A DNA stretch of 64,000 bases, taken from positions 10,062 through 74,061 of the forward strand of contig CALVLZ010000009.1 in the NCBI GenBank assembly GCA_944341445.1, given 5' to 3'. Made by a program: the position numbers and the translations under genes. Source of the DNA: an uncultured Clostridia bacterium (lineage in GTDB: Bacteria; Bacillota; Clostridia; Christensenellales; UBA1242). Position 1 is the first letter of the stretch; the number at the start of each line of letters is the position of its first letter. Under the pieces are notes generated by a model. It was not told where the DNA came from, ran no database searches, and was given only the letters and a program-made list of their open reading frames with translations. This document shows positions 363 to 29,500 of this stretch, in pieces.

Positions 363-1945
<1,583 letters not shown>

Positions 1946-5168: not shown

Positions 5169-5334
5169 AAAAACCCTACTTTTTATTACTATTTATTTAA
5201 TATTATATAAAATTTATGTAAAAAACACAAACAAATATTTTATTATATAAAATCAAACTTTGTAATATTTTATAACTTAATATTGAGTGTTAAAAATAAA
5301 AAGTCACACAAATTTTGTGCAACTTTTTATTTTT

Positions 5335-5583
5335 TTATTCTTCATCAATAAATTGTTTTATTTCAAGAAGATTATCATATGTTAATTCTGGAGAATTAAG
5401 TTCTTCATAGGCTTCAACAAAAGCATTTTTAACTTCTTCAGAATATTCTTTATTCTTTAAAGCAATATCTTTCATTTTTTCTGCCACTTTAACAACTTCT
5501 TCTTTTGTTTTAAAATCAACTGATTTAATTATTTTTTCAATAACGCTAAATCTGTTAATAGAAACATTACTTTTCTTAGCCAT
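5335..5583 (-). CDS. Small helical, mildly acidic hypothetical protein
   Basis: 82 aa, no TM, K/E-rich. RBS is taaggagtttgtt-ATG. It lies 90 nt downstream of the giant gene with no hairpin in between, so it is probably co-transcribed. Confidence 0.5.
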   Translation of the reverse strand: MAKKSNVSINRFSVIEKIIKSVDFKTKEEVVKVAEKMKDIALKNKEYSEEVKNAFVEAYEELNSPELTYDNLLEIKQFIDEE

Positions 5584-5673: not shown

Positions 5674-8600
5674 TTACCTGGGAGGCAACACTGATGAATC
5701 TTTAGCTTCTTTTTTCGATTTATCTTCTTCTTTATTTACCACCTTTTCGCCAACTTTTTTAGCCAATTCTTCAATGCCTTTCTTTATTTCCTCTTCAGAT
5801 TTTCCAGCTAGATCAAAAATTGCATCATTAACAATTGCCATAGCCAACTTATCATCTTCTTTTTCAGGATCTTTTAATAAGTTTTGTATATGCTCGCTCC
5901 ATCCCTTCTTTTGTTCATCATCAAGCTTATCCCAAGATTCTGCTACTTCTGAGATTTTACCAACATATTGAATAACTGATCCTTTTTTACTAACTTCATC
6001 AATTTTTTTAATTTCTTTACTTTCAGCTATATTTCGAATTACTTCTTTACTTTCTTTTTCTTTTATTCTGCTTACAAATTCTTCAACAGTAGCTGGTTTT
6101 TTAGCTTTAGATTCTTCTTTTTCCTCAGTGTTTTCTTCTGTTTTTTCTTCAGGCTTACTTTCTTTACTTTCTGTTTCATCTTCTCCCTTTGATTTATCAG
6201 GATCCTCTACAACAGCATGAACTCTTTCTGGATCTGAAGTTTCTCGAACGCTATTAACACTTTCTCTTGTTTTAACTTCTGGATATTCAGGAGCAATTGT
6301 TCTTGGATTGTATGGAGGGATCTTAGATAATGTGTATTTTATGTAATCTAAAGAATACTCTCCTGCAATTTTCTTATTTAATACTTCATCAATTATTGAT
6401 TGATAATCAACATCTGGTCCATATATATGACTTACAACTGCTGGTGCCACATCATTAACAATTCTATTTGCTAAATCAATAGTATATTTAGTTTTTTCAG
6501 GATTTGCAGAATCTTTAACTGAATCAATTAATTCATCTTTTGCACATTCAAAGAATTTTTCAGCTTGGTCTCTAGCAAAGCCAGGTCTAACAACGCCTTC
6601 TCTACCAATAAATTTACATTGTCTATCTAAAATTCTATTTATTCTATTTTCTGTTGACTTTCTAATTGTGTTTAAATATGTCAATTTTTGTTCATCAGCC
6701 ATTTTGTCAAAAGTTTCAGGTTCTATAAATACAACGTCTTCTTCTACTGCACTTGCATAAGGACTTGAAATATACTCATTATAAACTTCATTATATTGTT
6801 CACTTGCAACTTCACCAATTCTTTCAGCATTTTCATCTTTGTGAATTTCTTTTTTTGCAAGATCAATAGCTAATTGAATTGTTTGCAATGCAACATATGC
6901 TTTAATATCATTACCCATTTCTTTTTTGAACTTCATCAATTCACTATCGCTCTCTTCATAAATTCTTGTCCTTGTTGCAGATTCTCTAACAACTGCTTCT
7001 CTATCTTCTGTTTCAGTTGCTTCAGGTTCTGTTTTAGGAGCAACTGTTGTTTCTTTACCTTCTGCGGTTTCAGTAGCTTCAGTATGTTCACTTGCAGACT
7101 TCTCTGCAGCCTTATCTTTTTCAGACAACTTGCCATCAAGTAATTTTTTAGCATCTTCTTTGCTTATTTCTTTTTTACTTTCACCATCTGCAACAAATAG
7201 CTTACCATCTTCAGACATCTCAACACCTAAATCTTTAAGTGCGTTCGCAATTGTTTTTAATTTATCAATATCAACAGATTCCTCAGTTGCTTTATCAGAA
7301 TCAGCACTAGGTTCTGACTCATCGCCATAAATAGCATTAACTATAGCAATATCTTTCTTTGTTGCATTAATAATTTCTTTAGCTTCTTCTTTGGAAACTT
7401 CTGTAACTTTTCCATCTTTATCTGTTGTGATTAATTTTCCAGATTCATCAAATCTTAAGCCACTAACTTCTAAAGCATTTACAACATCTTTATCTGGAGT
7501 TACATCATCACCATATATAAATTTGTGTAAATCTTCAACTTTAACAGCATTAACCTTTTCTTTTTCATCTTTGCTTGGCTCTGGATTTTTTTCTTCAACC
7601 TTTTCTTCAGGTTTTATTTCAGCATTTACAACAGTTTCCTCTTTTTCTTTGTTCTCAATGCTTGTTTTTAAAATGTTTTCAACATCACCTTTAGAAACTG
7701 CATAGAAAGAACTATCAACAAATTGCTCTCCAATTTTTGTAATTCCTGCTTGTTGTAAAGCTTTTTCTTCAAAATCAATCATACTATTATTAACACTTTG
7801 TTTATCGATTTCTTTTTTAGAATCTTTATCAAAGTATTTTCCATCTTCCCCTTTCTCAATATTTAATTTACCTAAAATATATTCTTCTGATAAAACAAAA
7901 TTGTATTCTGGTTCAGTATTTTTCTTTTCTTTTCTTGTAAATTTTTCTTTAACTTTTGCAACAGCACTTTCAAACTTAGTTTTAAATTTCTTTAATTTTG
8001 AATTAACGTTCTCGTCAACTTTTGCAGATTTATCTTCAACCTTGTCTTCAACAACTTTATCGTTTTCAACTTCTGCACTTGTTGCTGCTTTTTCATCTTT
8101 TTTAGGTGTATATAATCCATTGTCAACATAATATTTAACTGATTCTTCAACCTTTTTATCTGCTCTTCCTTTAGCATTCAACAACGCATTGTTAACTTTT
8201 TCAAATTTTGGATCTTTTGATAATTTAGATTCCAAATCTGTTGAAAAGTCGAAGACTTCACCATCTTTAACAATACTTCTTAAATATTCAACTTCTTCAT
8301 CATCTAATTCCTTATCATTAACAACATATTGATGAGTGTTGTTATATTTGTAATCAACTTCAGTTTTGCCAACATTAGCATATTTCTTAGGTTTAGAGCC
8401 TTTTCCAACAATATTTCTAATTAATCCACTTTCTTCTAAAGCTGTAACAAATTCTTCATTATATCTTTTATTTAAATCTTTTCTTTTCTCTTCTTTAACA
8501 GTATTAATAATTTGATTTTTCTCTTCTTCAACTTTAACAATCTCTTGAATTTGTTCATCAACCAAAGATTTAACACCTGACACAGATTTAAAATCACTTT

Positions 8601-11487
8601 CAAATTTTTTAGGAATTAAAATTGTTTTAACTTCATCTTTTTCTTTATATTGAACTTCAACAAGTTCCATATCTTTGCCAGCATTTTTTTCAATAATTTT
8701 TTTACTAGCTTCAACTATGAACAACAATTTAGAATCAATTTCATCAACATATTCTTCTAACATTGATTTTTTCTCTGCATCAACTTCATCTGCAATTTTA
8801 CTAGTATTATCATCTTTATTTTTAACAGCATTAGTTATACGTTCATATTTTTCATCTGAAGCAATTCTTGCAACTCTATGAACTTCTTGCTCTAAAATAT
8901 AATTTTGCAACTGCAATTTTACTAATGCTTTGTTTTCATTCATTTTTTGAATTTCTTCACTAGTAGCTTTTCCATTCTTAGCTTTAAATTCAATACTTCT
9001 AATTTCTAAACACTTTGTTGTAAGATCTTCAATTAACTCAGGATTATTCTTAATAATATTTAAGCATTCTTTGCTTTTAAATATCCTACGTTTTCCAACT
9101 TTTTTAACATAATCACTATCTGTTTCAATAGATATAATTGAAGAAACCAATTCGTCATAAGATTTATCTTTTACATCTTTTTTGCTATTAGCTGAATAAT
9201 AATCTTTTCTTGTGTTTTCTTCAGAATCATAATACACTGCTAATTGATCAACTATAGAATTTCTAATTTGGAATCTTAATATACCATTTCTAATTCTGCC
9301 ACCTTTCATAATAGCAGCATTTTCTATTTCGCTTACTTTATAGTTTAAACCTCTTTCTATAATCTTAGCACGTTTTTCAACTGCAGATTTATAAGTTGCT
9401 TCAATTTCTTCAAATTCAGCAAAATTTTCGTCTTTCTTTGTTTTAGGGTCATCGCTAACAAATTTATCATAAGATTCACTTGGGAATTTCTCAGTATGTG
9501 TTTTTTTCCATTCGCTTTCAAAGTATCTTTTTTTGCCGTTTGCAACGTTTTGTTCAACCACATACTCGTATGCATCTTTAACAGTTTTGTTTAAATTAGC
9601 ATTTTCTTCATCTAACAATTGATCTATAAAGTCAACTCTAAAGTTTCCATCTTCTAAATCTGGTAGATTATTTAACACTTTGCCAAATACTTCAACAATT
9701 TTAGATTTATCTTCTGCATATTTTTTAGAAACTGTATAACCATAAGTTTTTTGTTTGCCCTTAACTTCAACATCAACACTAAAATCAGTTTTAGTTTTAT
9801 CATCAATTCTTGTTAAATAGCCACTATTTTCTAAAAATTTTAAGAAGTCACGTTTAGCAAATGATTTTCTTAAATCTGCATTATCCTTAGATTTCAAACT
9901 AAACTCTTTTAAAACATCTAGTTCTGCAAAAACTTTTGCTTGTTCATGAATATCTTCTTTAGTTAAATTTAAGTAAAAATCTCTTTCATCTGGTTTTAAA
10001 TAATAGATATTTGAAACATCTTCTGGTTTAGCTGAAATTAATGAGTTAAACATATCAGAAGTTAAGTTGTAAGGATTTTCTTGTCTTAACTTTTTAGTAT
10101 CATTATAAATTCTTCTTCTATATCTTAAATCTTCTTTTAATTTTTTAAATTTACTTGATGTGTAATCTTTAATACCAGACAAAACATCTGAAGCAACATT
10201 AACAGCCTTTTCAAAACCCTTTGCAATTTTAGATTTTTCTTTGCTTTTTGCTTGTTCTTCAGCAAATTTTTCGTCTTCTCTTTTTATTGCAGCTTCATTT
10301 TCTTCTCTCTTTATGCTTGCAATTCTTTCTTCAACAATTTTAGTTGAAGAATTTCTTGCTTCTTTAAACACTGCATTTACTTCTTTAAATTCTGGTTTAA
10401 GTTTAGAATCTAAATCTGAACCAATTTCAAAAATTTCGTCATCGCTTAACAAACTCTTTAAATATTTTGTTTGCTCATCACCTAATGATTCGTTTTGTAA
10501 AGTATCACTATTAATTATGTAACTTTTTCCACCAAAAATGAATTCTTGAGGTTTGAATTTTCTCATGGTCTTTTTACCAGTTGCACCATTTAAATTCATA
10601 ACCCTTTCATCGTTTTTGTTATCATTAACTCTAATAATACCTTTTTCTTCTAAAACTTTTACGAAGTTATTTTTATAATCGTCATTCATCTCTTTTTGTT
10701 CATTTTTAATTCTATCACTAATTTTTCTTTCTGTATCAGTAGGAATATATTCAGACACAGGAGATTTTTCGCCATTAACAATTCTATTTAAATCCTCTTC
10801 AGACACTAAATCAGTTGTTCCATCGTAGTAATACTTTCCGTTTATACTAGTAATACCCTTTTCCAACAATTTTTTTTCAAAATCTTTGGCTTCTTGCTCT
10901 TTTCTTTGTTTTTCTTCTTCTTTCTTGTTTTGTCTTTCTTCTTTCCACTTGTTATATTTATTTGTTAAATTAGTTCTAACATTGTTAAGTTCATCACCAA
11001 TTTTATTAATAGCTTTTAATACAAAATCATAAAAAGAAGCTTCATCTTTAGATTCAACAGATTCAACAGGTTTAACAACTTTGGTCTTTTTAGGAGCGTT
11101 TTGTTCTTTAAATTTTGTAGATGCATTTTCAACTGCTTTTCTAAGAATGTCATTTTCAATGGAATACTTTTTACCATCTTCAAGCACACTTAACATATCT
11201 TCAGGATAGCCTTTATCTCTCATTTGCTCCAACATATCTTCAACATATAATCTTGAATCTGAACCTTTTGCACGTTTAACAACAAATTGTTTGTTATTGT
11301 TTTTGTTTACTTTGAACACCACATCTTTATTCTTTTTTGCAGTGCTTGGTTTCTTATAACTTGCACCTTTTTGTCCTCTTAAACTTTTAACCAAACCAGC
11401 AGATTCTAACTCACTATAAAGCAACTCTTCAAATGTTTTTTTACTATTTCTAGTTGTTTTTTTTGTTGATTTTTTGGTTGTACTCAT
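5674..11487 (-). CDS. Giant (1937 aa) K/E/D-rich modular protein without signal peptide
   Basis: Uninterrupted 5.8-kb ORF with a basic N-terminus (MSTTKKSTKKTTRNSKK). No TM or signal sequence. It has recurring LExxG[ILV] modules and a less biased region near the C-terminus. I recognise no catalytic motif. Confidence 0.8.
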   Translation of the reverse strand: MSTTKKSTKKTTRNSKKTFEELLYSELESAGLVKSLRGQKGASYKKPSTAKKNKDVVFKVNKNNNKQFVVKRAKGSDSRLYVEDMLEQMRDKGYPEDMLSVLEDGKKYSIENDILRKAVENASTKFKEQNAPKKTKVVKPVESVESKDEASFYDFVLKAINKIGDELNNVRTNLTNKYNKWKEERQNKKEEEKQRKEQEAKDFEKKLLEKGITSINGKYYYDGTTDLVSEEDLNRIVNGEKSPVSEYIPTDTERKISDRIKNEQKEMNDDYKNNFVKVLEEKGIIRVNDNKNDERVMNLNGATGKKTMRKFKPQEFIFGGKSYIINSDTLQNESLGDEQTKYLKSLLSDDEIFEIGSDLDSKLKPEFKEVNAVFKEARNSSTKIVEERIASIKREENEAAIKREDEKFAEEQAKSKEKSKIAKGFEKAVNVASDVLSGIKDYTSSKFKKLKEDLRYRRRIYNDTKKLRQENPYNLTSDMFNSLISAKPEDVSNIYYLKPDERDFYLNLTKEDIHEQAKVFAELDVLKEFSLKSKDNADLRKSFAKRDFLKFLENSGYLTRIDDKTKTDFSVDVEVKGKQKTYGYTVSKKYAEDKSKIVEVFGKVLNNLPDLEDGNFRVDFIDQLLDEENANLNKTVKDAYEYVVEQNVANGKKRYFESEWKKTHTEKFPSESYDKFVSDDPKTKKDENFAEFEEIEATYKSAVEKRAKIIERGLNYKVSEIENAAIMKGGRIRNGILRFQIRNSIVDQLAVYYDSEENTRKDYYSANSKKDVKDKSYDELVSSIISIETDSDYVKKVGKRRIFKSKECLNIIKNNPELIEDLTTKCLEIRSIEFKAKNGKATSEEIQKMNENKALVKLQLQNYILEQEVHRVARIASDEKYERITNAVKNKDDNTSKIADEVDAEKKSMLEEYVDEIDSKLLFIVEASKKIIEKNAGKDMELVEVQYKEKDEVKTILIPKKFESDFKSVSGVKSLVDEQIQEIVKVEEEKNQIINTVKEEKRKDLNKRYNEEFVTALEESGLIRNIVGKGSKPKKYANVGKTEVDYKYNNTHQYVVNDKELDDEEVEYLRSIVKDGEVFDFSTDLESKLSKDPKFEKVNNALLNAKGRADKKVEESVKYYVDNGLYTPKKDEKAATSAEVENDKVVEDKVEDKSAKVDENVNSKLKKFKTKFESAVAKVKEKFTRKEKKNTEPEYNFVLSEEYILGKLNIEKGEDGKYFDKDSKKEIDKQSVNNSMIDFEEKALQQAGITKIGEQFVDSSFYAVSKGDVENILKTSIENKEKEETVVNAEIKPEEKVEEKNPEPSKDEKEKVNAVKVEDLHKFIYGDDVTPDKDVVNALEVSGLRFDESGKLITTDKDGKVTEVSKEEAKEIINATKKDIAIVNAIYGDESEPSADSDKATEESVDIDKLKTIANALKDLGVEMSEDGKLFVADGESKKEISKEDAKKLLDGKLSEKDKAAEKSASEHTEATETAEGKETTVAPKTEPEATETEDREAVVRESATRTRIYEESDSELMKFKKEMGNDIKAYVALQTIQLAIDLAKKEIHKDENAERIGEVASEQYNEVYNEYISSPYASAVEEDVVFIEPETFDKMADEQKLTYLNTIRKSTENRINRILDRQCKFIGREGVVRPGFARDQAEKFFECAKDELIDSVKDSANPEKTKYTIDLANRIVNDVAPAVVSHIYGPDVDYQSIIDEVLNKKIAGEYSLDYIKYTLSKIPPYNPRTIAPEYPEVKTRESVNSVRETSDPERVHAVVEDPDKSKGEDETESKESKPEEKTEENTEEKEESKAKKPATVEEFVSRIKEKESKEVIRNIAESKEIKKIDEVSKKGSVIQYVGKISEVAESWDKLDDEQKKGWSEHIQNLLKDPEKEDDKLAMAIVNDAIFDLAGKSEEEIKKGIEELAKKVGEKVVNKEEDKSKKEAKDSSVLPPR
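7120..7488 (-). repeat. Tandem intragenic module pair in the giant K/E-rich gene
   Basis: Residues about 1334-1456. NALEVSGLRFDESGKLITTDKDGKVTEVSKEEAKEIIN aligns with NALKDLGVEMSEDGKLFVADGESKKEISKEDAKKLLD. Confidence 0.7.
8143..8451 (-). repeat. Copy B of a ~105-aa intragenic duplication (partner at 10327-10665)
   Basis: FVTALEESGLIRN...YVVNDKELDDEEVEYLRSIVKDGEVFDFSTDLESKLSKDPKFEKVNNALLNAKGRADKKVEE aligns with copy A at the protein level. Confidence 0.7.
10327..10665 (-). repeat. Copy A of a ~105-aa intragenic duplication (partner at 8143-8451)
   Basis: FVKVLEEKGIIRV...YIINSDTLQNESLGDEQTKYLKSLLSDDEIFEIGSDLDSKLKPEFKEVNAVFKEARNSSTKIVEE. Confidence 0.7.
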
Positions 11488-11575: not shown

Positions 11576-11604
11576 ATTTTACCATATTTCGCCAAAAATT
11601 GCAA
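11576..11604 (-). promoter_or_regulatory. Candidate sigma-A-type promoter of the giant K/E-rich gene
   Basis: On the minus strand: TTGCAA (11604-11599), 17-nt spacer, TGg-TAAAAT extended -10 (11581-11576). It lies about 90 nt upstream of the ATG. Such matches are frequent in AT-rich DNA. Confidence 0.4.
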
Positions 11605-11833
11605 TACACTAAACAATATTAGTTAGCATTTATATATAATATTTTAGTATTTATTCATATAAAACTTAGAATTTATATCTAAAATTCTCAATTACGATTG
11701 TTAAAAATTTAAAATACAAATTTCTAAATATTTAAATTAAAAAAGTAAAAACTTAATTCATTTTTAAATTAAACATATTTTAAATTTGTTTTCTATAATA
11801 GTATTTGCAAATACAAAGTTTTAAATAAAAAAA

Positions 11834-11857
11834 ATAAAAGATTTTGCAATCTTTTAT
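11834..11857 (-). terminator. Rho-independent terminator of the VirB4-like gene
   Basis: 10-bp stem ataaaagatt / aatcttttat with loop ttgc, immediately after the stop at 11860-11862. A T-run of 8 follows on the minus strand. Confidence 0.7.
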
Positions 11858-11859
11858 TT

Positions 11860-14583
11860 TTACATTTCGTCCAAACTTTTTAAGAAATCACTTAAATTGT
11901 CTTTATTTTCTTCTTCCAACTCTGAAGCATCTTTTGTATAGTCGTGTTCAAACAAATCTCTAACAAGTGGCAATGCTTCAATATGAACTGTTGTTCTTTG
12001 TGTTGCACTAACAACCAAGAAACATGTTCCCTTATCAGCTGTAACAATTGCATCTTGTTCTTCTTTGTTTATACCACCAGCATTTCTATATAATGCAATT
12101 AAGTCTGTCATATCATTTGGAGCAAGTGAGAATATTAAAGAATATTGACTTGCGTTTATTATTGCAGTACTTTGCTGAGCAATTTCTTCAGAACCAACAA
12201 AGTCTTTAATGTTTTGTGTTGCAATAATTTGCATTCCGTGGTATTTACGAATACGTTTTGCCATACGAGTCATAAACTCAAGTGATGTTGGGAATTTTTT
12301 ATTAATAAATTCGTGCGCTTCATCAACTGCAATTATAACTCTTCTATACTCCAATTCTTCCAAATTTGGTTTATAATATTTATCATTAAAGTCTTTGTTT
12401 TTTGTTATTTCATTATTTAAGAATTTGAAAACTAACAACATTTGAGCATTTGTGATTAATGGGTTGTTATTTCCTAATAAGTTACGGAAATTGAAACAGA
12501 TAAAGTTTTCATTAGTTACGATACTTGTAGGTCCATTCCACAAGTTACTATATCTACCACCAGAAGCAAATTTTTCTATATAAGTTCTAACAGTAAGTAA
12601 AGATTTCATTCTGTATGGTTCAGTTTCTTCTTTAATTTGATCTTTTATAATTTTTAACAAATCATCAAATATTGGATAATCTTCTGGTTCTAAAGTGCTT
12701 AAGTCTGTGTTTTCTGTTATGTTTTTAGATTTATATACTTCAATCAACAAACTGTTCAATGTTTCAAAACTATCAGAATCAATTCCAGGCAAGATAATTC
12801 TAAAAAATTGTTCCAAAAATTGCAAATGCGCACTATAAGAAGAACTTAAATCACCCTCATCTTCTTTCAAATCTGTGAATATATGGAATGGGTTAAAAAT
12901 ACCGTGAATATTTGAACCAACATCAATAATTTTACCATTCAAGTTATTACAAATAACTTCATATTCGTTTTCTGGGTCTAGTATAAATATTCTTGTTTGG
13001 TCTGCAGCAAAGTTTGTTAATAATGTTTTAGTTGCGAAAGATTTACCAGCACCAGATTTTCCCATAACAACCATGTTGCTATTCATTCTATCTTTATCTC
13101 TTGAGAAGAAGTTGATGAACATCGGATATTCACTCCAACCAATATAAATACCATGGTCATCTTGCATCATACTGCTAATAAATGGAAACATTGCAGCAAG
13201 TGAACTTGTGTGTATTCCACGCTCATACATTTTTAAAGTATCTAATCTTGAAATATTTGCACTTACAAATGCATCTATTTGCCTTCCAAAATTTTCAGCA
13301 AATCTAAAACCATTTTGTTTTAAAAGTGACCTTACTTCTTTTTTATTCTCATCCAATGTAACAATGTGAATATTTGTGTTATACAAAGTTTCACCATTAT
13401 TTTTTAAACTTGTTAACAATTCTCTTAATGTGTCATAGTGTGTTTGATTTTCAATTTGTTGACTTGTTTTTGCTGTTTTATTAAGTTTAATTTCCATTTC
13501 CATCAAACTTTTATCAAGCAATTTTTCAGCTTTAAATCTATCCATTTGCTCAATATTAACAACAACTCTTGTGTCTGGCAACATAAATATTGGATACAAC
13601 CACGCATTAGGAACTTCCAATGGATATTCTGAAATTGTGAATGTTCTATACAACTTTTTGTCAATTTGTGTAGTCATACTCTTGAATTGAACATTATCTG
13701 GGAAAGCCCATTTAACTTTTTCTTCGCCATTCAAATTTTTCAATTCTCTTTCATCAAAATAATCTGTAAATGTGCTTTTTAAGAAAACCAACAATTCATC
13801 ACCAACTAAAATTTTAGAATATATTGGTGTGACACTTGAAGATAAAGAAGCAGACATACCTTTTATTGTTGATTCAAGCATTTCGCGGTCTGTATCATAA
13901 ACAACAATATAATAATGCTCTTTTAAAATTCTATCATAGTTGTTAAAAATATTTATATTTCTTAAACGTTCTTCAAAAATTGGTGCACGTAAATCAAGTT
14001 CTTCTTGTGAATATAATCCTTTAGAACTCATTTCCTGAAGTTTTGTGTATCTATAGTCCTCATATTGTTCCATTTCATCCAAAACTTCAGCCTTTTTAAT
14101 TTTAACCACACTCATCTTTTGATTTTTATTCAAACGTGTTATTGCATTACCAAATGTATTTATTGCAACTTCTTGTTTTTCTTCATCTAATAAGAAAAAG
14201 TCTATTGGAAAAATTTCCAAAACCATTGCATAATACTCACCAAAACTAATGTATTGATTCCTATTTAATCCTTCAAATGGAATAATTCTTTTAATATTTT
14301 CATTTTGTTTAACAAAGTTTTTAAAATATTTTTTCTTATAAGCAAAAAACTTAAAAGCCAAAACAACACTAAAATATAATTTAACACCATCAGAAACAGG
14401 AACAAATAACATAACCCAAAGTGATGCAACAGCAATACCCAAGTATATGTTATATGGTATGTTACTAGCAAAAACCATAACTGCAGCAACTAAACCAATT
14501 AGTGCTATTATACAGTCTAAAAAAGTAAAATTTTTAAATACTTCTGTTTTAATTTTTGCCTTTCTTGGAATAAATTTAGACAT
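11860..14583 (-). CDS. VirB4/TrbE/TraE-type T4SS ATPase with fused N-terminal VirB3/PrgI-like membrane segment
   Basis: 907 aa. Residues about 1-90 form hydrophobic helices. Walker A is GKSGAGKS (about 13039-13063), Walker B is IIAVDEAHEF, and a GMQIIATQN motif typical of VirB4-family ATPases is present. AAGGGAGAA RBS. Confidence 0.8.
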   Translation of the reverse strand: MSKFIPRKAKIKTEVFKNFTFLDCIIALIGLVAAVMVFASNIPYNIYLGIAVASLWVMLFVPVSDGVKLYFSVVLAFKFFAYKKKYFKNFVKQNENIKRIIPFEGLNRNQYISFGEYYAMVLEIFPIDFFLLDEEKQEVAINTFGNAITRLNKNQKMSVVKIKKAEVLDEMEQYEDYRYTKLQEMSSKGLYSQEELDLRAPIFEERLRNINIFNNYDRILKEHYYIVVYDTDREMLESTIKGMSASLSSSVTPIYSKILVGDELLVFLKSTFTDYFDERELKNLNGEEKVKWAFPDNVQFKSMTTQIDKKLYRTFTISEYPLEVPNAWLYPIFMLPDTRVVVNIEQMDRFKAEKLLDKSLMEMEIKLNKTAKTSQQIENQTHYDTLRELLTSLKNNGETLYNTNIHIVTLDENKKEVRSLLKQNGFRFAENFGRQIDAFVSANISRLDTLKMYERGIHTSSLAAMFPFISSMMQDDHGIYIGWSEYPMFINFFSRDKDRMNSNMVVMGKSGAGKSFATKTLLTNFAADQTRIFILDPENEYEVICNNLNGKIIDVGSNIHGIFNPFHIFTDLKEDEGDLSSSYSAHLQFLEQFFRIILPGIDSDSFETLNSLLIEVYKSKNITENTDLSTLEPEDYPIFDDLLKIIKDQIKEETEPYRMKSLLTVRTYIEKFASGGRYSNLWNGPTSIVTNENFICFNFRNLLGNNNPLITNAQMLLVFKFLNNEITKNKDFNDKYYKPNLEELEYRRVIIAVDEAHEFINKKFPTSLEFMTRMAKRIRKYHGMQIIATQNIKDFVGSEEIAQQSTAIINASQYSLIFSLAPNDMTDLIALYRNAGGINKEEQDAIVTADKGTCFLVVSATQRTTVHIEALPLVRDLFEHDYTKDASELEEENKDNLSDFLKSLDEM

Positions 14584-14850: not shown

Positions 14851-14870
14851 AAAGTGATTAAAATCACTTT
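14851..14870 (-). terminator. Probable terminator after the VirB6-like pair
   Basis: Inverted repeat aaagtgatt / aatcacttt abutting the stop codon at 14870-14872. A T-rich tract follows on the minus strand. The loop is very short, so the effective stem is shorter. Confidence 0.5.
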
Positions 14871-17098: not shown

Positions 17099-17131
17099 TT
17101 ATCTCCTTTTTATATTTGTTGACTTTTAAAT

Positions 17132-19621: not shown

Positions 19622-19893
19622 ATATTCCTCCAATCAAAAATAGTTGAATAATAATTCGATTCAGCAACTTCTTATAATTATATTATCTAACAATAATTAT
19701 ATAATATTACAACAGAAAAATCAAATATATTAATAAACAAAAAAACAATAAATGCACATTTGTTTATATTAAAATTTGCACAAATAAACAATTAAAACAA
19801 AAAGGACATTATAAAAATATAAATTGGAAAAACATTCCTATGAAAAATTAATCTGTCTGATTTAATGGAAACAAAAATAATTTTCTATAATTA

Positions 19894-19928: not shown

Positions 19929-19960
19929 ATTACCGCTTAAATTGTATTCAGAAAACAAAA

Positions 19961-19980: not shown

Positions 19981-20442
19981 TTAATATGTTAATACACCAA
20001 ATGTTCTACCAACTGCACATGCCATAGTTTTTAACATGCCAATTGAACTATCTTCTTCAGCAGCTTTTCCTCCGTTCCAACCATAACCAGATACTAAATT
20101 TGCAATATTTGGAGCATATTTAACAAATAATGCTAAAAGTGCCATTAACGCAAGCATTGCAATTATACCAATAACTGCATTTATTAAGCGTTTTTTAGCT
20201 TCTTCACGAGCATCTGAACTTTCTGCTCTTGAATATTTAACACCTAATATAATTGCATAAATTGAACCAGCAGTTCCAACTAAAATTAACAAAGGAACTA
20301 TCATCATATTTAAAACTTCTATAATAGGTTCAAATATGCTTTTATACCAGTCTTGTGTTGTAACATCTCCAGTTGTACCAGTACTTTCTGCATCTTCAGC
20401 TAAAAACTTAGAAAAGCCCATAATTAAATTCATTAAAGACAT
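19981..20442 (-). CDS. Small two-helix membrane protein, TrbC/VirB2-like (pilin-like conjugal transfer protein)
   Basis: 153 aa. Two hydrophobic helices are separated by a charged loop (KYSRAESSDAREEAKKR). GGGAGAG RBS. It has its own promoter-like element and terminator. The assignment rests on size, topology and context. Confidence 0.5.
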   Translation of the reverse strand: MSLMNLIMGFSKFLAEDAESTGTTGDVTTQDWYKSIFEPIIEVLNMMIVPLLILVGTAGSIYAIILGVKYSRAESSDAREEAKKRLINAVIGIIAMLALMALLALFVKYAPNIANLVSGYGWNGGKAAEEDSSIGMLKTMACAVGRTFGVLTY

Positions 20443-20862: not shown

Positions 20863-22980
20863 ATGATGGCAGACGAACAAAATAAGAAAAAGAAATCATT
20901 TACAACAAAAGTTATTTTTTTATTAGCTTTTATAGTTGTATCATTTATTATTTCATTAGCAGTTGCTGGTTATTTGGAATACAACGAAATTAAATTTGAT
21001 ACAGCATTAATATCTACACCAGGTTTTTTTATTCCTTTTGCTGTTTTAATAGGAGGTTTAATTTTTGTTACCTATTCCGTATTAAAAAAACCAGCAGATA
21101 AAAAGCCTAAATCTGAAATTAAAACAGAAAATAATATTAAAAAGTTTTACGATTCTCATTTTTTAACATTAGATGAGTTACGAAAACAAAAAAATTTTAT
21201 GTTCCATTATTGGGAAGAACTTAAAACTTTAAAAATTAAGAAAAGTCCATATGGAAAAAAATCAGATTTTATTCCTTGTGGAATACCAATTCGAGGAGAA
21301 TTGATTAATAATAGACTAGAAGTCAATATGTACTCTGCAGATACCCACGCACTTATAGTTGGTACTTCTGGTTCTGGTAAATCTTCAAGACTTGTTGAAC
21401 CAACAATTCATATTTTAAGTGAAACAGGCGTTAAACCTCACTTGGTTATAACAGACCCAAAAGGTGAATTATTCCACGATACAAGTGAATCTTTGAAGAA
21501 AAAAGGCTACAACGTAATAGTTTTTGATATTGACGATCCTTATTCCAGCACACGTTGGAATCCACTATCCAGCATCTATAGGATGTATAGAAAAGCTCAA
21601 ACCTTACGTGATTTAGTTAAGGTTCACAGAGGAGATAATCCAAAAACTTTAAATTTAAAATGTCCACAACGCGAATATTACAATGAATGGTATGAATTAG
21701 ATGGTTATGCTCTAGCCGATAAACAAAGTTTGGAAGATTTTATTATTTCAACAAAACAACAATTGGAATCAAGATGTGTTGAAGAGTTAAAAGATGTTGC
21801 AAGTGTTATTGTTCCAGAAAGCAAATCTAACGACCCATATTGGGAAAACTCTGCTAGAAGTTTTATTCAAGCAATAATGACTGCAATGTTAGAAGATTCT
21901 AACGACCCAGAACTTGAAATGACTGAAGATAAATTTAATTTCTACAACGTAAATCAAATTGCAAACTTGGTTGACGTTGACAGTATGGGAACAAACCCAT
22001 ATAAATCAATTTGCAAATATTTTAATGATAGAGATAACTTTTCTCAAGCAAAAATTTTAGCAAGTAACGTTGTTAATAATAGAATTGAAACACAACAAAA
22101 CTTATTTGGTACAATCACTGAAAAATTAAGTATGTTTAACGATATGGGCATGTGTTATGTTACAAGTGCGAACGAAATGAATTTAAACAACTTTGACGAA
22201 CAACCAAGTGCACTATACTTAAGAATTCCAGACCAAAAAGTCAACCGTTATCCAATTGCAATAATGTTTATAACACAGTTATATAAACAGTTAGTTGAAA
22301 TTGCAAACACTAAAGAAGGATTACTTGATAGACCTTGTTATTTCATAATGGATGAGTTTGCAAATATGCCTCAAATACCTAACTTTAAAACAGTTATAAC
22401 AGTTTCTCGTGGTAGAAGAATATTCTTTATGCTTATTGTTCAATCTTATGTTCAGTTAAAAATTGCATATGGTGAAGATGTTGCAACAACAATTGAAGAC
22501 AACTGTAACGTTGTTCTATTCTTAGCAACAAACGACCAAGCAACTGCACAAAAAATTTCTGAAAAATGTGGAACAATTTCTTTTAAAACCACAACAACAA
22601 GTTATAGTTCAAATAAAAGCAATAACAAAGAAGATAAAGGTGGCGAAAGCAAAAATGAAAGTGTTGCTATTGACACTAGACCGTTAATATATAAAGAGGA
22701 ATTATCAACAATTCAAAAAAATGGTCAAGTTTTAATTTTATTCCAAAAAGACTTCCCTGCTAAAAGCAAATTTACATCTGCTTACGACCCTGCAATGAGT
22801 AAATTCTATGACAGGACCCCTGCAAGACAATTGCCAAGCATCCCTAAAAGATTAAACATTGAACAAATAACTTATGATATTAGAAAAATCAATCAATTAA
22901 AAGATGAAAAAAGCAGAAAAAACAATTCATCTGCTAACAACTCAAATTTTGGCGGTTTTGATAGTTTTAACTTATTTTAA
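20863..22980 (+). CDS. VirD4/TraG/TraD-type type IV coupling protein (T4CP)
   Basis: 705 aa with two N-terminal TM helices. Walker A is GTSGSGKSS (21361-21387) and Walker B is YFIMDEFANM. The RGRRIFFMLIVQSYVQL segment is typical of TraG/VirD4 family ATPases. Confidence 0.85.
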   Translation: MMADEQNKKKKSFTTKVIFLLAFIVVSFIISLAVAGYLEYNEIKFDTALISTPGFFIPFAVLIGGLIFVTYSVLKKPADKKPKSEIKTENNIKKFYDSHFLTLDELRKQKNFMFHYWEELKTLKIKKSPYGKKSDFIPCGIPIRGELINNRLEVNMYSADTHALIVGTSGSGKSSRLVEPTIHILSETGVKPHLVITDPKGELFHDTSESLKKKGYNVIVFDIDDPYSSTRWNPLSSIYRMYRKAQTLRDLVKVHRGDNPKTLNLKCPQREYYNEWYELDGYALADKQSLEDFIISTKQQLESRCVEELKDVASVIVPESKSNDPYWENSARSFIQAIMTAMLEDSNDPELEMTEDKFNFYNVNQIANLVDVDSMGTNPYKSICKYFNDRDNFSQAKILASNVVNNRIETQQNLFGTITEKLSMFNDMGMCYVTSANEMNLNNFDEQPSALYLRIPDQKVNRYPIAIMFITQLYKQLVEIANTKEGLLDRPCYFIMDEFANMPQIPNFKTVITVSRGRRIFFMLIVQSYVQLKIAYGEDVATTIEDNCNVVLFLATNDQATAQKISEKCGTISFKTTTTSYSSNKSNNKEDKGGESKNESVAIDTRPLIYKEELSTIQKNGQVLILFQKDFPAKSKFTSAYDPAMSKFYDRTPARQLPSIPKRLNIEQITYDIRKINQLKDEKSRKNNSSANNSNFGGFDSFNLF

Positions 22981-23010: not shown

Positions 23011-23513
23011 ATTAATAAAATTTAAACTTATTTTTATGTTCATTTTTTACAATTTTAACAATTTTAATTATTATGCAAACTTGTTAATTATGCCTATATT
23101 TTAGGTGTTTTATAGAAACATGCATAGCACATAGAAGTTAAATTATTATATAAAATTTTTAATTAAAATTTTATTTAAACTACAACAAAAGAACGATTGA
23201 TTAAAAAAATTTTTGAAAATTAAAAATTATTAATTTTCTTTTTTTTCCCCGTTTCATATGAAAAAATATTTTACAATTTATATAATTACAAACGCAGCAT
23301 TATAAATAAATTATTAAATTTATTTTGTTTTAACTTAACTTAAATGTTGAATAAAAGTATATGATTATGATAAAGAATATAAATTAAATAATTATATAAA
23401 ATATATATAATATATAATAAACAAATTAAAATTATTTTGTTAATTTTTTATTGTGTGATAAAATATTCGTAAATGAATTATTAAATATGGAAAATCATTT
23501 TAGGAGATTTAAA

Positions 23514-26500
23514 ATGCAAAAGATTAAAAAGTTGTGGATTTTTAGTTTTATATCTATGGCAATAGCCCTTTTCACTGTTTGGGGAATTTTTTCTATTATA
23601 AAATCAACAAGCAAAGTAAATGCAGACCAGTTGCCTGAAGGCGTTGAATATGCTGCTTATATCGATAAGAGCGTTAGTTTCACTGAATATTCAGAAGATA
23701 CTGGTTATGTGTATGCAGAAGGCACTAGAAAATACGTTACCAAAAATGAAATAATTTCAGACGTAAATGGCAAATATGTTGAAATGCTTGAAAATAATGA
23801 AAATGGAGCAATTCAAAACACAAACTTTAACATTTTAAGAAATAGCCACGATAGTTATGTAACAAGTGGAATTGCAGAAAACTTCTACTTTACAATTGGA
23901 ACTGCCGTAAGCGGACCTGATGCAACATTGGACCCAAGCAAAACATATTTAACAGCTTTGCAAATTAATATGTTTTTAAATGGAAAAATGTTATATATTA
24001 ATCCAAGAAATTCAACAAATGTTATGGTTGACAACAAAGAAACAAGCATTGACTATTGGTATCAATATATAGACTTAACTAATATGTATTATTCGTTAGA
24101 TAACGACCCAAACCAAAAAGGTGAAAAAGTTGAAAATCCACAAGGAACATTTACATTAACATTCCAATTCTCAACAGTTAAAAATAATCAAATTGGCAAT
24201 GCTGTTACATATCAAGTTTCCTACACTACACTTTCGCAAAAAACTTATAAAGATAATTTTCCATATTTTGAAAACACTTTAAAAAATGTTGACACTTCAA
24301 CATATTTCACAAGTGAAGGAAGTAGTTCACCTTTACAATATTATTACAACTTTAATAACAAAAATAATATAGTTGAAACCAAAAAAGTTTTACCATCTTA
24401 TGTTTTTGACGCAAAACTTTATGGTTTGAATATTACTAGACAATATAACGATTTAATTGAATACATAACAACTGAATTTAGTATTGATGAAAATCAAACA
24501 GGAAAATTAAATATAAATTATTGGAATGCTGACAAACAAACCCTAATAAAAAAGGATACTGTTACAATTCCTAACGATGGCGGAAAATATATTTACAAGT
24601 TGGAATTTGAAGATTTTGGTGTTTACACTGTTGAAAACTTTTATATGGTTGAAACAACAAAAGAAGGTTCAACAGCAACTCGAACATTCCAAATGGCAAC
24701 AGGCTCAAATGTTTTAGCAAATCCAACTGAAAGTTTGCAATATTTTAAAAATGTTGAAAAAGATGTTTCTGTTAGTGGCGATGCATATGGCAAAAACACA
24801 TTTATTTTAAACAATGTTGGTATTAAATCATTCTTTTTAGATTATTCAAAAGTAAATAAAGAAATTGATAACTATTCCGTTATTAAAGAAAACAATCAAA
24901 ATTACAGCGACACTAATTGGTTAACAGCTAACATTGCTTCTAAAATTGAAAGTAACACTGGTTCTTATAGTTTAACAAATTATTTAAACACTAGTTACAA
25001 CACTTCATTATTTAAAACTATATTTGGTGCAAACATTCAGACAGTTGAAGAATTCAATAACAACTTCCCTGTTTTAAACCAAGGCCCAATTAGTTTTGAA
25101 AGATTTGGAACAATTAATCAAACTAAAAGCAAATATAAAATTTACCCTACTTTTAATGATTTATTAAATGGCACAACAGATTCAAACATTGTTAAACAAG
25201 GTGTTATTACAAAAGACACAAAATTAACACAAGTTGGCTATTACGAAGTTTTAATTAATTATGAATATAATGGAATAGATTTTGCTCAAGCATTTATTTT
25301 CTGCATTGACAAAAGTTCTCCAACTTCAACTTTGTACACATACGATGCTGAAAATGGCAATAAAGAAATTTTAACAAAAAAATATACAAACAAGATTGTT
25401 GAATTTGAATTTCCTAAACAAACATATTTCCAAGCTCCAATCAGAGCAAGATATATTAGAACAGAATTAGGAACAGGTTTCTCAAACAATTTTGATGGTG
25501 TTGAATTTAATTACACATCAGGAACTCAATTAATAGATGATGGTAACTATAGCATTCAATTGGTATTTGGCGAAACAGATAGTTACTACATTGAACAATT
25601 TGTTATTGATACTTTAGATATTGATGGCATGAAATACTCACCTATTGATGCAGTTTACAATGAGAACAACCAAGTTATTGGCTACACATTAAAAAGTGAT
25701 ATTTCAACAAGCAACGCAAATTTAACAAGTCACCCATTTACATTCTTATTTAACGAAAAATTAAGTGATGCAAAAATAGAAGTTAAATATAAAAAATTTA
25801 ATTTTGAATTAATTTCAAGTTCTGGAAATTTATTAGATAATGTTACTGCACTTGAAACTAATAAATATGTAACAACAGGCTATAAATTAGTTAACAAAGT
25901 TTCCGCTTATTCAGATTACTTTGCGTTTGATAAAAATTCTTTAGAAGTTCCTGAAAAAAATGTATTTGTTGATAACACTAGCGGTTTATACATTTTTGAA
26001 CTTGTTGATGAAGCAGGCAACACTGCAACATTCTTTGTTATTTACGATTTAACAAAACCACAAGTTGTGTTTAACCCACAAATTGAAAACAAATATAACA
26101 TTGTTAACTCTGCAACAGATATCATTTGGGGACAAAGCAAAGCAACATTAGTTGAAAAAGTTAATGATGGAGATGAATCTTTTAATAACTTATTAAATGA
26201 CCCTGAAAGTAACTTCCAAAGTTATTTCTCACAAATTGAAAACAAAAATTATATGTCTGTTAAAAACTCAAACGTTGTTTTTGAATATTATTTAAATAAT
26301 GTATTACAAACAACAACTATTAATGTTGGAGCAACATCTGATGATTGGCACAAAACAATTTACCCAACACAAGAAGATGCACCACAAGGAACTTCAGAAC
26401 ATTTTATTGGTGAAAAAGATTACACTATAACAATAACACCATCGACAAACACAAATTACACAACTTCTTTAAACAACGATGTTAAATCAAAGTTTAACAT

Positions 26501-29500
26501 TTCAATGAACTTAGATTCTTCCATTGGAATATTTAATGGTTATTATGATGAACATTCTGATAACAGCACAGGTATTAGAATTTTAAAAGACACTTCAACT
26601 AACTCAAACAAACTTCGTTTTAGTTTAATCCCAAAACTTGACGAAGTTGAAGATCCTAACAGAGTTATTGAATTAAGTTATGAATACTACCCTGTTGCAG
26701 TTAGTGAATATGAAAACTTGCAAGATGGTTCTAGTTTAACAATTCAAGCTAACAGTGATGGAAAACCTAATGTATTATACCCTTTCAGCAAAAACCCAAC
26801 AATAACAAAAACATTAATTAGCAATGGCTCAATTGTTGATATGTCTTCATATTCAGACCCTGAAGACCCTGAAAGAGTTTTCTCAAACATAATTAACCCA
26901 ACCATAATTAATGGAGAAACATTCACACAAGAAGGTTTCTACATTTTCAAAAGAGTTTATGATGAAGAAAAGTTTGCAACCGTTGAAGATAGCAATGATA
27001 CTTTAATTAGATATTATGCAGTTTGCGTAACACGTGAAGGCATAATAAACATTTCAGATTCAATTTCAACAGGAAAAAATATTTCATTTAGTATGCCAAA
27101 TGGAAACAAAGAACCTGTTATATTCACTGCAGAAGATATTCAGAGTTATATTAGTGCAGGTGAAACAAATCTTTTCACAACTAATAAATTACCATTAAAA
27201 TTCACATTGCCAAATGATAAATATGATGCAGAAACAACTTTGAACAATATTTCTAATATTGATTCTGAATATTTAATAAATGCAATTAATTTAAATAACA
27301 GATTGTTTGGTTTAAAATTAACTTTAACAAACAAATATTTATTAAACAATGGTTACACAACTGAAAATGTTGTTGTTGATAACGTTGTTAATAGAAATTA
27401 CAACACTTATAAAATTTTTGATGATACCGGTTCTTTAATAAACCCATCAAGCGATACTCGTGTTAGAGAAAGTGGATTTAACAAAGCTGGAAGTTTTACT
27501 GTTACTATTAGTGATAGTTCTGGCATTGATAAGTTCCCAAGCAACACAACAACTTTTAATTACACAATATCCCACTACTCTCCTAATGGAAAATTTATTA
27601 ACAACAATTATTCTTATTCAGAAAGACCTTCCCAAACAGAAGCGAACAAAACAATTTTTAAAAGCACAAATCAGAAAGAAATTTATTTTTCATTTAACGA
27701 TAAAGGTGAAGTTGGCGGAATTAATGGAATTGATATGTTCAAAGCCGAAATTGACCCAACAAACATCGAAGTTAAACAAATATTGCCAAACGGAGCAGTT
27801 GGAAAAACATATACAATTAAAAACCAAGAACAACTTAACACTGCAATTGCAGAAGGATTAATTGAAAAAGTTAATTTTAACTCTGCAGGAGATGTTGTTG
27901 AAGATAACGACCCTGGCATTATTGCAACCAATTACATAATTCATATAACAAGCGAAACAAGTCCTGAAACAAGCATAATGAACGGAACAGGAACAGAAAG
28001 CACATATGAAGTTAAATTATGTTTTGTTGGAAATGAGAATGATTATATTGGAACATCTGCAAATGGCGAAACTGTTAATTATTTCTACAGAACTTTCTCA
28101 ATAACAGTTGATAGAACAAAACCTAGCGCAAATGTTAACAAATTAAAAGCAAATGATAAATTCACAGATTCTAGCTTCACCGCTAATTTAGAAAGTTATA
28201 TGTTTGCGGTAACAGATTTGCAACAAAGTTCTGCATTCTTTAAATTCACAAGAGAAAATAACAACGTAAATGAAAGTGATGAGATTTTTGCTAGGTACCT
28301 ATCTTCTCCATTAAATTATTTGCAAACAATAACTCCAGACAATCCAAATTACAAAAATTTAGTTGTTTACCCTAACAATCCAATGTTTGAAGAAGGCAAC
28401 AGTATTTATGTTAATTTACAAGGCTATAATGAAGAAGGTGTTATTAACCTTGAAACTTTGGGAGAAAGCGGTTATTATGAAATTATTGAACGTGATGAAG
28501 CTGGAAACTACATTGTTTATGTTGTACACTACGTTAAAGCATCTGATTTAGTTAACTATGTTCCTAATTTAAACATTAGTTACAACAATGTTAACTCAGA
28601 TACACCAATTGCTAAAGACATATCTGGCAATTATAATGATATTTTAACAACACAATACACAACTGAAATATTAGGTGAAAACTTCAGTATTAATAACATT
28701 AAAACTTATAATTATGTTGACTTGTTCCAAAAAGTTACAGTTAATATAAACAATCAACGTGAAAAAACATTTATAAGCACTGCAGAAGATAAACAACTTT
28801 CTAATTTAAATAGTTTCTTATCAGAAATTAATAGTTACATAAAAACTCAAACAGAATCAAGTTTGAAAAATGGTTACAAAGTAACAATAACCTTAACAAA
28901 CAGGTTCTTTGAAAATTATGTTATCACATACTTAATTGCAGGCGCTCAATTAGAACCAATTTATAACATTAACGAAACTAAACAAACAATTCAAATAACA
29001 ATTCCAAACGATAACGAAACAACAAAAATTGTTGCATTCAGAGTTTATAAATTCGAAAATGGTGCTTGGAAGTTATTAAATACAGATAACTCCTCACCTA
29101 ACCCAAAACCAATTATAACAAGCGCTGAATTAGTTGGAAGAGAATCTTTAGCTGGTGATACTTATAATTTTGGCGCTGGCGAATATCAATTTGAATTGAT
29201 TGATAATTTTGGAAGAGGTTTATCTGAAAATAACGAATCTTTCTTTAAAGGTGTTGGAATTAGTAACGTTGCATACTTTAGTGATTTTTACAATAATCAA
29301 CAACCTGCTGAAGGAGGAAATGTTGTTAACTACACTGCAAAGCCTTTCACATTCACATATCAATCTAACTACTATAATTTAAACATTTATTTACCAACAG
29401 AAAATGGAAATTTCTCAAAAACTCCAATAAACACAGCAAATAACCCAGATTGGTTAACACAATATTCTGCTCTTATTGAAGAATCTAGAGTTGTTGGTAG

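Follow-up and report, generated by a model that had tools for sequence, protein, structure and literature searches.

Little is understood of the type IV secretion systems (T4SSs) of monoderm bacteria, and for almost none of them is a protein substrate known. In the integrative and conjugative elements (ICEs) of mycoplasmas, the gene after VirB4 (CDS17) is CDS19, which encodes a protein of 1424-1821 aa (PMC6813540; PMC7648426). It is the least conserved ICE core protein, with 14-28% identity between elements (PMC7648426; PMC6813540), and transmembrane domains are predicted in its members (PMC6813540). CDS19 is required for the transfer of ICEA and has been seen by proteomics (PMC6030558; PMC12228374). 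The T4SS of Patescibacteria is a monoderm-type MPF-FATA system with a PF18895 pilin-like gene, chromosomally fixed, usually relaxase-less and presumed to be co-opted for a function other than conjugation (PMC12102498). Such relaxase-less chromosomal T4SSs have recently been tied to the epibiotic lifestyle of this group. Here a T4SS locus is described from an uncultured, spore-forming member of the Clostridia with low GC content (~28%). It lies in a 64-kb stretch of contig CALVLZ010000009.1 (positions 10,062 to 74,061), which is called the window and to which all coordinates refer. The gene directly after its VirB4 encodes a soluble protein of 1937 aa, the giant, which is probably a cargo or an accessory of the T4SS. 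Our tentative preference is that the giant is a dedicated, fast-evolving cargo exported by this chromosomal T4SS, with a conserved 82-aa protein, p82, as its chaperone-like partner. What is new here is the pairing of p82 with a large soluble open reading frame (ORF) across related loci, and a giant without a described homologue.

The Giant and Its Secretion Locus

The giant, p82 and the T4SS genes are arranged as follows.

5335..5583, minus strand: p82, acidic protein of 82 aa, isoelectric point (pI) 5.0, 90 nt downstream of the giant gene, with an AAGGAG ribosome-binding site
5674..11487, minus strand: giant ORF, ATG start, 1937 aa, 222 kDa, pI 5.3, single intact frame, orphan sequence
11860..14583, minus strand: VirB3/VirB4-type ATPase of the Mbov_0397 (Mollicutes ICE) type, with two N-terminal transmembrane segments
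14870-17098, minus strand: p742, polytopic membrane protein of the Mbov_0396/MMCAP2_0566 family, VirB6-like, paralogue of p833
17132-19633, minus strand: p833, polytopic membrane protein of the Mbov_0396/MMCAP2_0566 family, VirB6-like, paralogue of p742
19981..20442, minus strand: pilin-like protein, PF18895 / Mbov_0395 family (Pfam, NCBIfam)
20863..22980, plus strand: VirD4 coupling protein, CD1115 family, divergently transcribed

The minus-strand operon reads pilin-like gene, p833, p742, VirB4, giant, p82. The ATPase scores 585.9 bits with the NCBIfam model NF045975 (VirB4_plasma / Mbov_0397), whose cut-off is 590. On one side the locus is flanked by GAPDH and MnmA, on the other by Rho, SpoIIR, SleB and YpeB, and no relaxase, integrase, transposase, tRNA or Rfam family was found within the 64-kb window. 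Judged by its gene content, the locus is a chromosomally fixed T4SS of the Mollicutes ICE type and not a mobile element.

An initial annotation, made from the letters of the window alone, had described one ORF at 5674-11487 with a basic N-terminus, no hydrophobic segment or export signal, extreme Lys, Glu and Asp content and no catalytic motif, genetically tied to a T4SS. All of these points hold. The ORF has exactly this position, on the minus strand, and it directly follows the VirB3/VirB4-type ATPase gene in the company of the pilin-like gene, the two VirB6-like genes and the divergent VirD4. Its product contains 15.1% K, 13.3% E and 7.9% D, about twice the content of the neighbouring proteins (8.2%, 6.5% and 5.4%). 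Residues 1-100 carry a net charge of +12, whereas the whole protein has a net charge of -49, an acidic last third and a grand average of hydropathy of -0.96. The highest Kyte-Doolittle mean over 19 residues is 0.81, so the giant has no transmembrane or signal-peptide-like segment. Regular-expression checks found no Walker A, HUH, HExxH, DEAD, CxxC or LPXTG motif in it, and there are only 10 His and 4 Cys residues.

Is the giant a real gene? Full-length copies are present in two other assemblies, 98% and 94% identical and 1936 and 1925 aa long, and the ratio of nonsynonymous to synonymous substitution rates (dN/dS) among the three strains is 0.47-0.60. Because the frame is intact in all three copies at such ratios, the giant is a real gene.

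Three signals bear on its transcription.

5292..5334, minus strand: intrinsic terminator closing the giant-p82 unit, 20-bp stem and U run, folding free energy (dG) -19.3 kcal/mol, z -6.85
11576..11604, minus strand: promoter-like TTGCAA-N17-TAAAAT with an upstream TG, ~90 nt before the giant ATG
11830..11861, minus strand: A/U-rich hairpin and U run, a weak or partial terminator, directly after the VirB4 stop codon

The giant gene had been placed behind a VirB4 terminator and credited with a promoter-like element of its own. The terminator is indeed there as a hairpin with a U run, if weak or partial: its 14-bp A/U stem has a dG of -11.1 kcal/mol (z -4.66), none of 200 shuffles folds as well, and owing to this A/U-rich stem it escaped a scan for consensus terminators. 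The promoter-like element is also present, but it is indistinguishable from chance in this AT-rich DNA, where 34 such matches were found against 36.8 expected from shuffles. Since such matches are no commoner than in shuffles, that the element is a real promoter is only plausible. Between the giant gene and p82 there is no hairpin comparable to the terminator after p82, and the two genes are predicted to share one transcript that ends at this terminator.

A Conserved Partner and a Variable Slot

The strongest evidence that the giant is a functional member of the T4SS is its partnership with p82, as read from related loci. With VirB4 as bait, 56 such loci were found in a set with one genome per GTDB species and 16 in JGI metagenomes. 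Their VirB4 proteins are 41-65% identical to that of the window, bar one weak match of 28% in each scan. The records are mostly Clostridia, Christensenella or Christensenellales metagenome-assembled genomes (MAGs) from animal and human guts, the sources including human, ruminant, rabbit and others. The recurring architecture consists of VirD4 on the opposite strand, one or more pilin genes, one or more membrane proteins, VirB4 and a large ORF.

What occupies the slot after VirB4? The census covers the 60 loci whose sequence continues for at least 2 kb past VirB4, some metagenome loci duplicating genome loci. In 43 of them, a large ORF without a transmembrane segment or signal peptide directly follows VirB4, typically after ~130 nt; these ORFs encode 362-1537 aa, all but one at least 619 aa. 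A further 13 loci, mostly a distinct group with VirB4 identity of ~42%, have a membrane- or signal-containing ORF in the slot, and the remaining four have neither type.

Searches recovered p82 homologues, at E 4.5e-19 to 1.5e-3, from ~40 related loci. Wherever a locus reaches far enough, the homologue is the next gene on the same strand after the large soluble ORF, usually with 14-70 nt in between. It follows slot ORFs that are singletons or belong to small families too (L001, L003, L006, L008, L015, L026, L031 and L038). It is absent where the soluble ORF is absent (L004, L007, L033 and L062) and where the slot gene is of the membrane or signal type (L029, L040, L041, L044, L049, L055 and L068-L072). 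The giant belongs to the class defined by this analysis, a soluble ORF after VirB4 with a p82 homologue on the same strand. Because p82 and the soluble ORF are present or absent together, selection acts on the two genes as a unit, which closes the T4SS operon at its 3' end and in which the large soluble protein is hypervariable and its small acidic partner conserved.

The p82 family is ~80 aa long in alignment, with a helix-like pattern and an acidic tail, and p82 itself is predicted to be helical. No Pfam or PDB family was matched by the p82 family; weak SAM_Exu matches appeared in 11 of 35 members only. A ribbon-helix-helix identity was considered for p82 and rejected, the pattern not being visible by eye in the family alignment and no Pfam or PDB match being found.

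By contrast with p82, the giant could not be traced by sequence search; p82 is therefore far the better search handle. Searches of Pfam, NCBIfam, PHROGs and PADLOC gave no family match for the giant (in NCBIfam a spurious CymR match only), and neither phmmer against PDB sequences nor tblastn against plasmids found anything. The homologue search proposed in the initial annotation returned only copies from the giant's own species: a word-indexed search of 5.8 billion proteins with the whole giant found two strain variants, and aa 738-1937, compared exhaustively by HMMER with 1.84 billion cluster representatives, retrieved only its own cluster. Word-indexed queries with aa 1490-1770 and aa 1-740 were empty and missed even the parents P0001 and P0002, which are 92-100% identical in these regions; the results are uninformative because their own positive control failed. 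No record in the contig index matched the giant exactly, and the JGI metagenome scan with VirB4 yielded no nearer relative to bridge the gap, the best being 61% identical. Within this range of searches, the giant is without a detectable homologue beyond its own species.

Neither did the slot ORFs resemble the giant in phmmer, in phmmer --max with seven segments (none at E<0.01), in jackhmmer clustering or in hhalign. Jackhmmer merges 24 slot ORFs into one family of charged proteins of 600-1540 aa, without transmembrane segments or signal peptides, that share ~600 N-terminal residues and vary in their C-terminal parts. The giant and the slot ORFs of the loci closest by VirB4 remain singletons in iterative clustering, and hhalign of the 24-member family with the giant gave a probability of ~0.5. 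This family occupies the same slot as the giant, between VirB4 and a p82 homologue, but the giant is longer, has internal modules of its own and shows no detectable sequence or profile similarity to it. Seven slot counterparts that were tested have no meaningful Pfam domain (one sub-threshold BLOC1_2 match), and five had no match in NCBIfam. An N-terminal 'ELExAG[FL]' resemblance between the giant and its counterparts was discarded as too short to count. The shared pairing with p82 suggests that these unrelated-looking ORFs are functional equivalents of the giant. They are probably its orthologues diverged beyond recognition, which is plausible because even the T4SS membrane proteins are down to 22-32% identity.

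The slot proteins of L040, L041, L044, L049, L055 and L068-L072, which form a more distant clade with VirB4 ~42% identical, are ~1700-2100 aa long. Their N-terminal region resembles Mbov_0396 (as shown for L040), and further transmembrane segments lie towards the C-terminus. These loci, which lack p82, are an alternative architecture of the same operon.

Variation between Strains

No other gene of the locus diverges as fast as the giant, and the cytoplasmic ATPases are the slowest: dN/dS between strains is 0.02-0.04 for VirB4 and 0.02-0.14 for flanking enzyme genes. The N-terminal three quarters of the giant are nearly invariant between strains, and p82 is 100% identical. The variation is concentrated in one segment.

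6103..7062, minus strand: variable cassette, aa 1476-1795, with three allele classes; contains the 'less biased' region and an invariant core at aa 1701-1750

The initial annotation had singled out a compositionally less biased stretch near the C-terminus. This stretch, nt 6208-6990, corresponds to aa 1500-1760 and does hold the quoted block RQCKFIGREGVV...EKFFECAKDE; it is the strain-variable part of the giant and not the most conserved one. Over eight contigs, five further partial copies recovered through p82 included, identity between cassette alleles is 78-99%, while the flanks are at least 92% and mostly at least 96% identical. Conserved within the cassette are aa 1701-1750 (…DYQSIIDEVLNK.IAGEYSLDYIKYTLSKIPPYNPRTIAPEYPEVK…) and a core of RQC.FIGR.GVV.PGFARDQAEKFFEC. 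Compared with strain L057, the cassette has a dS of 0.30, against 0.01-0.02 elsewhere in the giant, and a dN/dS of 0.40. The pattern is what one would expect of a folded domain that is kept under purifying selection while recombination swaps its alleles.

L057, the one strain with a divergent cassette, is also the strain with divergent pilin and membrane proteins. Its pilin-like gene and both membrane-protein genes (L057:985-6717) encode proteins 77-83% identical to those of the window (14870-20442), with dS of 0.5-0.8, whereas its VirB4 is 98.8% identical and its housekeeping genes are more than 99% identical. Such a pattern suggests that strains have replaced alleles of the envelope-exposed T4SS parts.

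An Exported Cargo?

How might the T4SS use such a pair? If the giant is a cargo, its gene would be transcribed together with p82, and p82 would serve as a cytoplasmic chaperone or adaptor. The pair would be passed to the VirD4 coupling protein, and the long, mostly helical, modular giant would leave the cell without a Sec signal via VirB3/4, the two VirB6-like proteins and the pilin-like protein. Once outside, it would act on a partner cell or stay at the surface, and such exposure would account for its fast divergence and its recombining variable cassette. The binding of p82, recognition by VirD4, export and extracellular activity are steps that we infer.

Several observations point to export. 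In T4SS biology, a coupling protein without a relaxase points to a protein substrate, and the presence of VirD4 together with the lack of a relaxase in the window suggests one here. The giant has neither a Sec signal nor a transmembrane segment nor an LPXTG motif, so any export would go through the T4SS. Linked to a T4SS with a coupling protein and free of a Sec signal, it has the genetic setting expected of a translocated substrate; we know of no consensus translocation signal for substrates of monoderm T4SSs. Fast divergence and the cassette, in a strain with diverged envelope parts, fit a protein that meets the outside world.

Other points weigh against this reading. Secretion of the giant has no direct evidence, and 222 kDa is large for a T4SS substrate. 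The C-terminus, which ends in …KEAKDSSVLPPR, is unlike known VirB/D4 signals, and no recognisable translocation signal was found in it. Wherever it could be estimated, dN/dS is below 1, so diversifying selection is unproven; a helical protein of low complexity could look just as divergent if it were weakly constrained, and cytoplasmic scaffolds can also evolve fast. The small partner could be a machine subunit in its own right rather than a chaperone. Homology between the slot ORFs and the giant could not be demonstrated, and function is transferred from them by position alone. Finally, co-occurrence with VirB4 holds by construction, VirB4 having been the bait for all related loci.

A bolder proposal, which we offer as speculation and consider rather doubtful in its full extent, is that the giant and p82 form an undescribed type of cargo module. 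Its hypervariable protein would be rod-like, independent of Sec and accompanied by a small, conserved chaperone. The exporter would be a domesticated conjugation machine, for which no relaxase was found and which is vertically inherited across an order-level lineage of uncultured gut Clostridia (Christensenellales-like in MAG records). Its use would lie in cell-cell interaction, through attachment to or manipulation of partner bacteria or host, and not in plasmid transfer.

Alternative Readings

Does the giant have to leave the cell? It may instead be an elongated cytoplasmic scaffold or tether that, with p82, docks on the VirB4/VirD4 face in an organising or gating role and is never exported. 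This is a possible reading and nearly as likely as an exported cargo, given that dN/dS is nowhere above 1 and that no observation demonstrates export. A highly hydrophilic, charged protein without an export signal, encoded in the fixed order VirB4, giant, p82 and nearly invariant over its N-terminal three quarters, is consistent with it, and so, at low confidence, are the predicted structures. The structure check that the initial annotation had called for was made with AlphaFold2 on both halves of the giant, using 3-sequence alignments. Long helices, such as aa 149-209, 365-470 and 843-934, make up most of the models, whose mean predicted local distance difference test score (pLDDT) is 45; only the small hairpin modules that interrupt the helices reach 65-77. 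An ER/K-type stretch lies at aa 179-210. Foldseek of the models against PDB gave a best E of 0.6, and no fold is assignable. However, the giant is the fastest-diverging gene of the locus, while the ATPases it would contact are the slowest, and an internal scaffold would not usually carry a cassette of recombining alleles. Mollicutes clusters have no soluble equivalent and, to our knowledge, characterised monoderm T4SSs need no such scaffold component.

Could the giant handle nucleic acid? It would then replace a relaxase or accessory factors, and the T4SS would export or import DNA or RNA. Three features of the sequence are relevant.

8068..8610, minus strand: internal duplication copy 2, aa ~960-1140, local alignment to copy 1
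10198..10770, minus strand: internal duplication copy 1, aa ~240-430, local alignment to copy 2
11128..11487, minus strand: basic N-terminal segment, aa 1-120, pI 9.8, a Lys/Thr-rich tail and the first 'LExxG[IL]' module

The two duplication copies align locally with a score of 134, against a shuffle null with mean 42 and sd 10, while DNA tandem repeats within the gene are trivial. A module of ~45 aa, with F..xLExxG[IL] followed by a hairpin and then [IV]SKE[ED], is present in nine copies. At aa 16-46, the giant resembles the recognition helix and wing of Rrf2/CymR regulators far under the cut-offs (Pfam E 0.022; NCBIfam CymR E 0.0017, 18.5 bits against a 195-bit cut-off). Modules scanned singly gave Rrf2 at E 0.025 and, for another module, MarR at E 0.067, all sub-threshold. 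The modules lack helices 1 and 2 of the winged-helix fold, and a profile built from them matched no winged-helix protein among PDB sequences. A winged-helix identity, not reproduced by either the single-module or the profile searches, stays a hint.

The basic N-terminus, these sub-threshold matches, the repeated modules, the lack of a relaxase gene in the window and the position of a related Mycoplasma hyopneumoniae cluster next to dprA would favour a role with nucleic acid. It is nevertheless unlikely. The giant is acidic overall (net charge -49, pI 5.3), and the matches to Pfam and NCBIfam families are far under the cut-offs. As a relaxase it has neither an HUH motif nor a Pfam or NCBIfam relaxase domain. 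As an SMC/Rad50-like ATPase head it lacks Walker A and any Pfam or PADLOC match, and no primase, nuclease or recombinase motif or domain was found in it by Pfam, NCBIfam and motif checks. The initial annotation had proposed a translocated substrate, a scaffold or a nucleic-acid coat for the giant; the tie to the T4SS is supported, and the coat is the least favoured of the three, given the acidic net charge.

It is very unlikely that the giant is unrelated to the T4SS, a weakly constrained, lineage-specific ORF that chances to follow VirB4. Its orphan sequence, its relatively high dN/dS and a composition that tracks the drift of an AT-rich genome towards K, E, N and I would fit such an origin. 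However, in-frame differences in length among three strains leave the 5.8-kb frame open, dN/dS lies clearly under 1, and a large soluble ORF and a p82 homologue share the slot in dozens of species and are lost together.

Least probable of all is a polymorphic-toxin-like effector with a conserved trafficking region, a variable toxic domain and p82 as immunity protein, which a cassette with discrete alleles in an otherwise conserved protein, a 24-member family with a conserved N-terminus of ~600 aa and variable C-terminal parts, and a small gene directly downstream might suggest, but neither the giant nor seven counterparts have a Pfam toxin domain, the cassette is internal (aa 1476-1795) rather than C-terminal, and p82 is identical in strains that differ in the cassette and conserved across species, the opposite of how immunity genes behave.

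An exported cargo thus remains our tentative preference, and the two-gene module of a hypervariable giant and a conserved 82-aa partner is a concrete candidate. Export of the pair would establish a substrate-chaperone system for a Gram-positive T4SS and hint at the use that abundant uncultured gut bacteria make of a conjugation-derived machine. If the giant is not exported, it would be a new cytoplasmic T4SS component.

Chromosomal Setting

Two further features frame the locus.

1448-1945, minus strand: p165, zinc-ribbon and transmembrane protein of 165 aa (weak TM2 match), immediately upstream of mnmA
23451..31496, plus strand: second giant, 2681 aa, N/T/S-rich, with a signal peptide and a C-terminal transmembrane anchor; adjoins VirD4

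In related loci, the large ORF is followed by p165-MnmA or by Frag1-M29-GAPDH-p165-MnmA, and this chromosomal neighbourhood persists at ~70% MnmA identity. Identity to the window across the loci is 67-72% for MnmA, 70% for GAPDH, 50-62% for VirB4, 38-41% for VirD4 and 22-32% for the T4SS membrane proteins, while the giant is undetectable. These graded identities fit vertical inheritance of the whole locus. No record exceeds 65% VirB4 identity in the GTDB-species or JGI sets, and because these sets hold no closer record, the lineage of the window is rare. Its only occurrences are a contig of 77.9 kb at NCBI, two assemblies in Logan and a small number of short contigs at ENA.

Most related loci have p165 at this position too, where it delimits the T4SS locus on the chromosome. 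In L033, VirB4 (which ends at 8137) runs straight into p165 and MnmA, with neither a large soluble ORF nor p82; this looks like joint loss of the pair of giant-type ORF and p82.

The second giant has no match in Pfam, NCBIfam, PHROGs or PADLOC, and its predicted topology looks like that of a surface adhesin. Recognisable homologues stand at the same position in L003 and L006, and most other related loci have large ORFs there without detectable similarity to it.

All other identifiable genes of the window are housekeeping genes, namely those for GAPDH, MnmA, an M29 peptidase, a Rho-like protein, YpeB, SleB, SpoIIR, KsgA, MetRS, DnaE, WhiA, UvrC, TrpRS, RF1, MurB and MurC. The Rho-like ORF (31540-32754, minus strand) encodes 404 aa for which Pfam, at E<=1e-3, lists the Rho RNA-binding domain only and no ATPase domain; it may be a divergent or degenerate Rho. 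Between SpoIIR and KsgA lie two minus-strand ORFs of 482 and 306 aa (35521-36969 and 37141-38061) with no Pfam match.

Comparison with Known Systems

How does the giant compare with CDS19 and its relatives? The chromosomal cluster of M. hyopneumoniae consists of dprA, Mbov_0395, Mbov_0396, Mbov_0397 and an Mbov_0399 family protein, flanked by eno/serS and rpsT. As in the giant's cluster, the large gene follows an Mbov_0397-type VirB4 in the order pilin-like, Mbov_0396-type, VirB4. The Mbov_0399 protein has 1210 aa, a hydrophobic N-terminus and a C-terminal membrane anchor, with a maximal hydropathy of 2.38; proteins of the CDS19/Mbov_0399 type thus have membrane or signal segments, whereas the giant is soluble, with a maximum of 0.81. 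Furthermore, no p82-like gene follows Mbov_0399 in M. hyopneumoniae, where rpsT comes next. When this protein was compared by phmmer --max with a set that included the giant, the giant gave no match at E<=10 and the other soluble counterparts came no lower than E 0.3; the NCBIfam model of the Mbov_0399 family did not match the giant either. Orthology was accordingly rejected once the M. hyopneumoniae member had been fetched, both topology and sequence being different. CDS19 is a positional analogue only, and its match by predicted topology is the second giant at 23451-31496. The initial annotation knew of no described T4SS component with the giant's architecture, and this impression stands: the nearest analogue by position is membrane-anchored and without sequence similarity.

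The M. hyopneumoniae locus itself (L083; Mesomycoplasma hyopneumoniae NZ_LR214993.1, 5610-15257) is a minimal four-gene T4SS cluster directly after dprA, in which neither VirD4 nor a transposase is visible. Perhaps this mycoplasma keeps it as a remnant fixed in the chromosome, or has repurposed it.

A small acidic partner beside a large secreted protein is the classic substrate-chaperone layout, known from VirE2/VirE1 as well as from type III and type VII systems. Like VirE2 of Agrobacterium, the giant is a large hydrophilic protein without a Sec signal, encoded beside a small acidic partner in a VirD4 locus. However, the two pairs share no sequence or fold similarity, the giant is ~3x the size of VirE2, and its host is a monoderm. 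VirE2 binds single-stranded DNA, whereas the giant is acidic, and its pairing with p82 is known from the genes alone.

The T4SS of Patescibacteria differs in other respects. The present locus belongs to a spore-forming member of the Clostridia, with VirB3 and VirB4 apparently fused and VirD4 adjacent, and the relevant part of the report on the Patescibacteria T4SS describes no giant soluble protein with a p82-like partner (PMC12102498). In its main features this locus is nonetheless alike: it too is monoderm-type and chromosome-fixed, has a PF18895 pilin-like gene and has no relaxase that could be found in the window. It shows the same kind of domestication in spore-forming, uncultured Clostridia of the gut.

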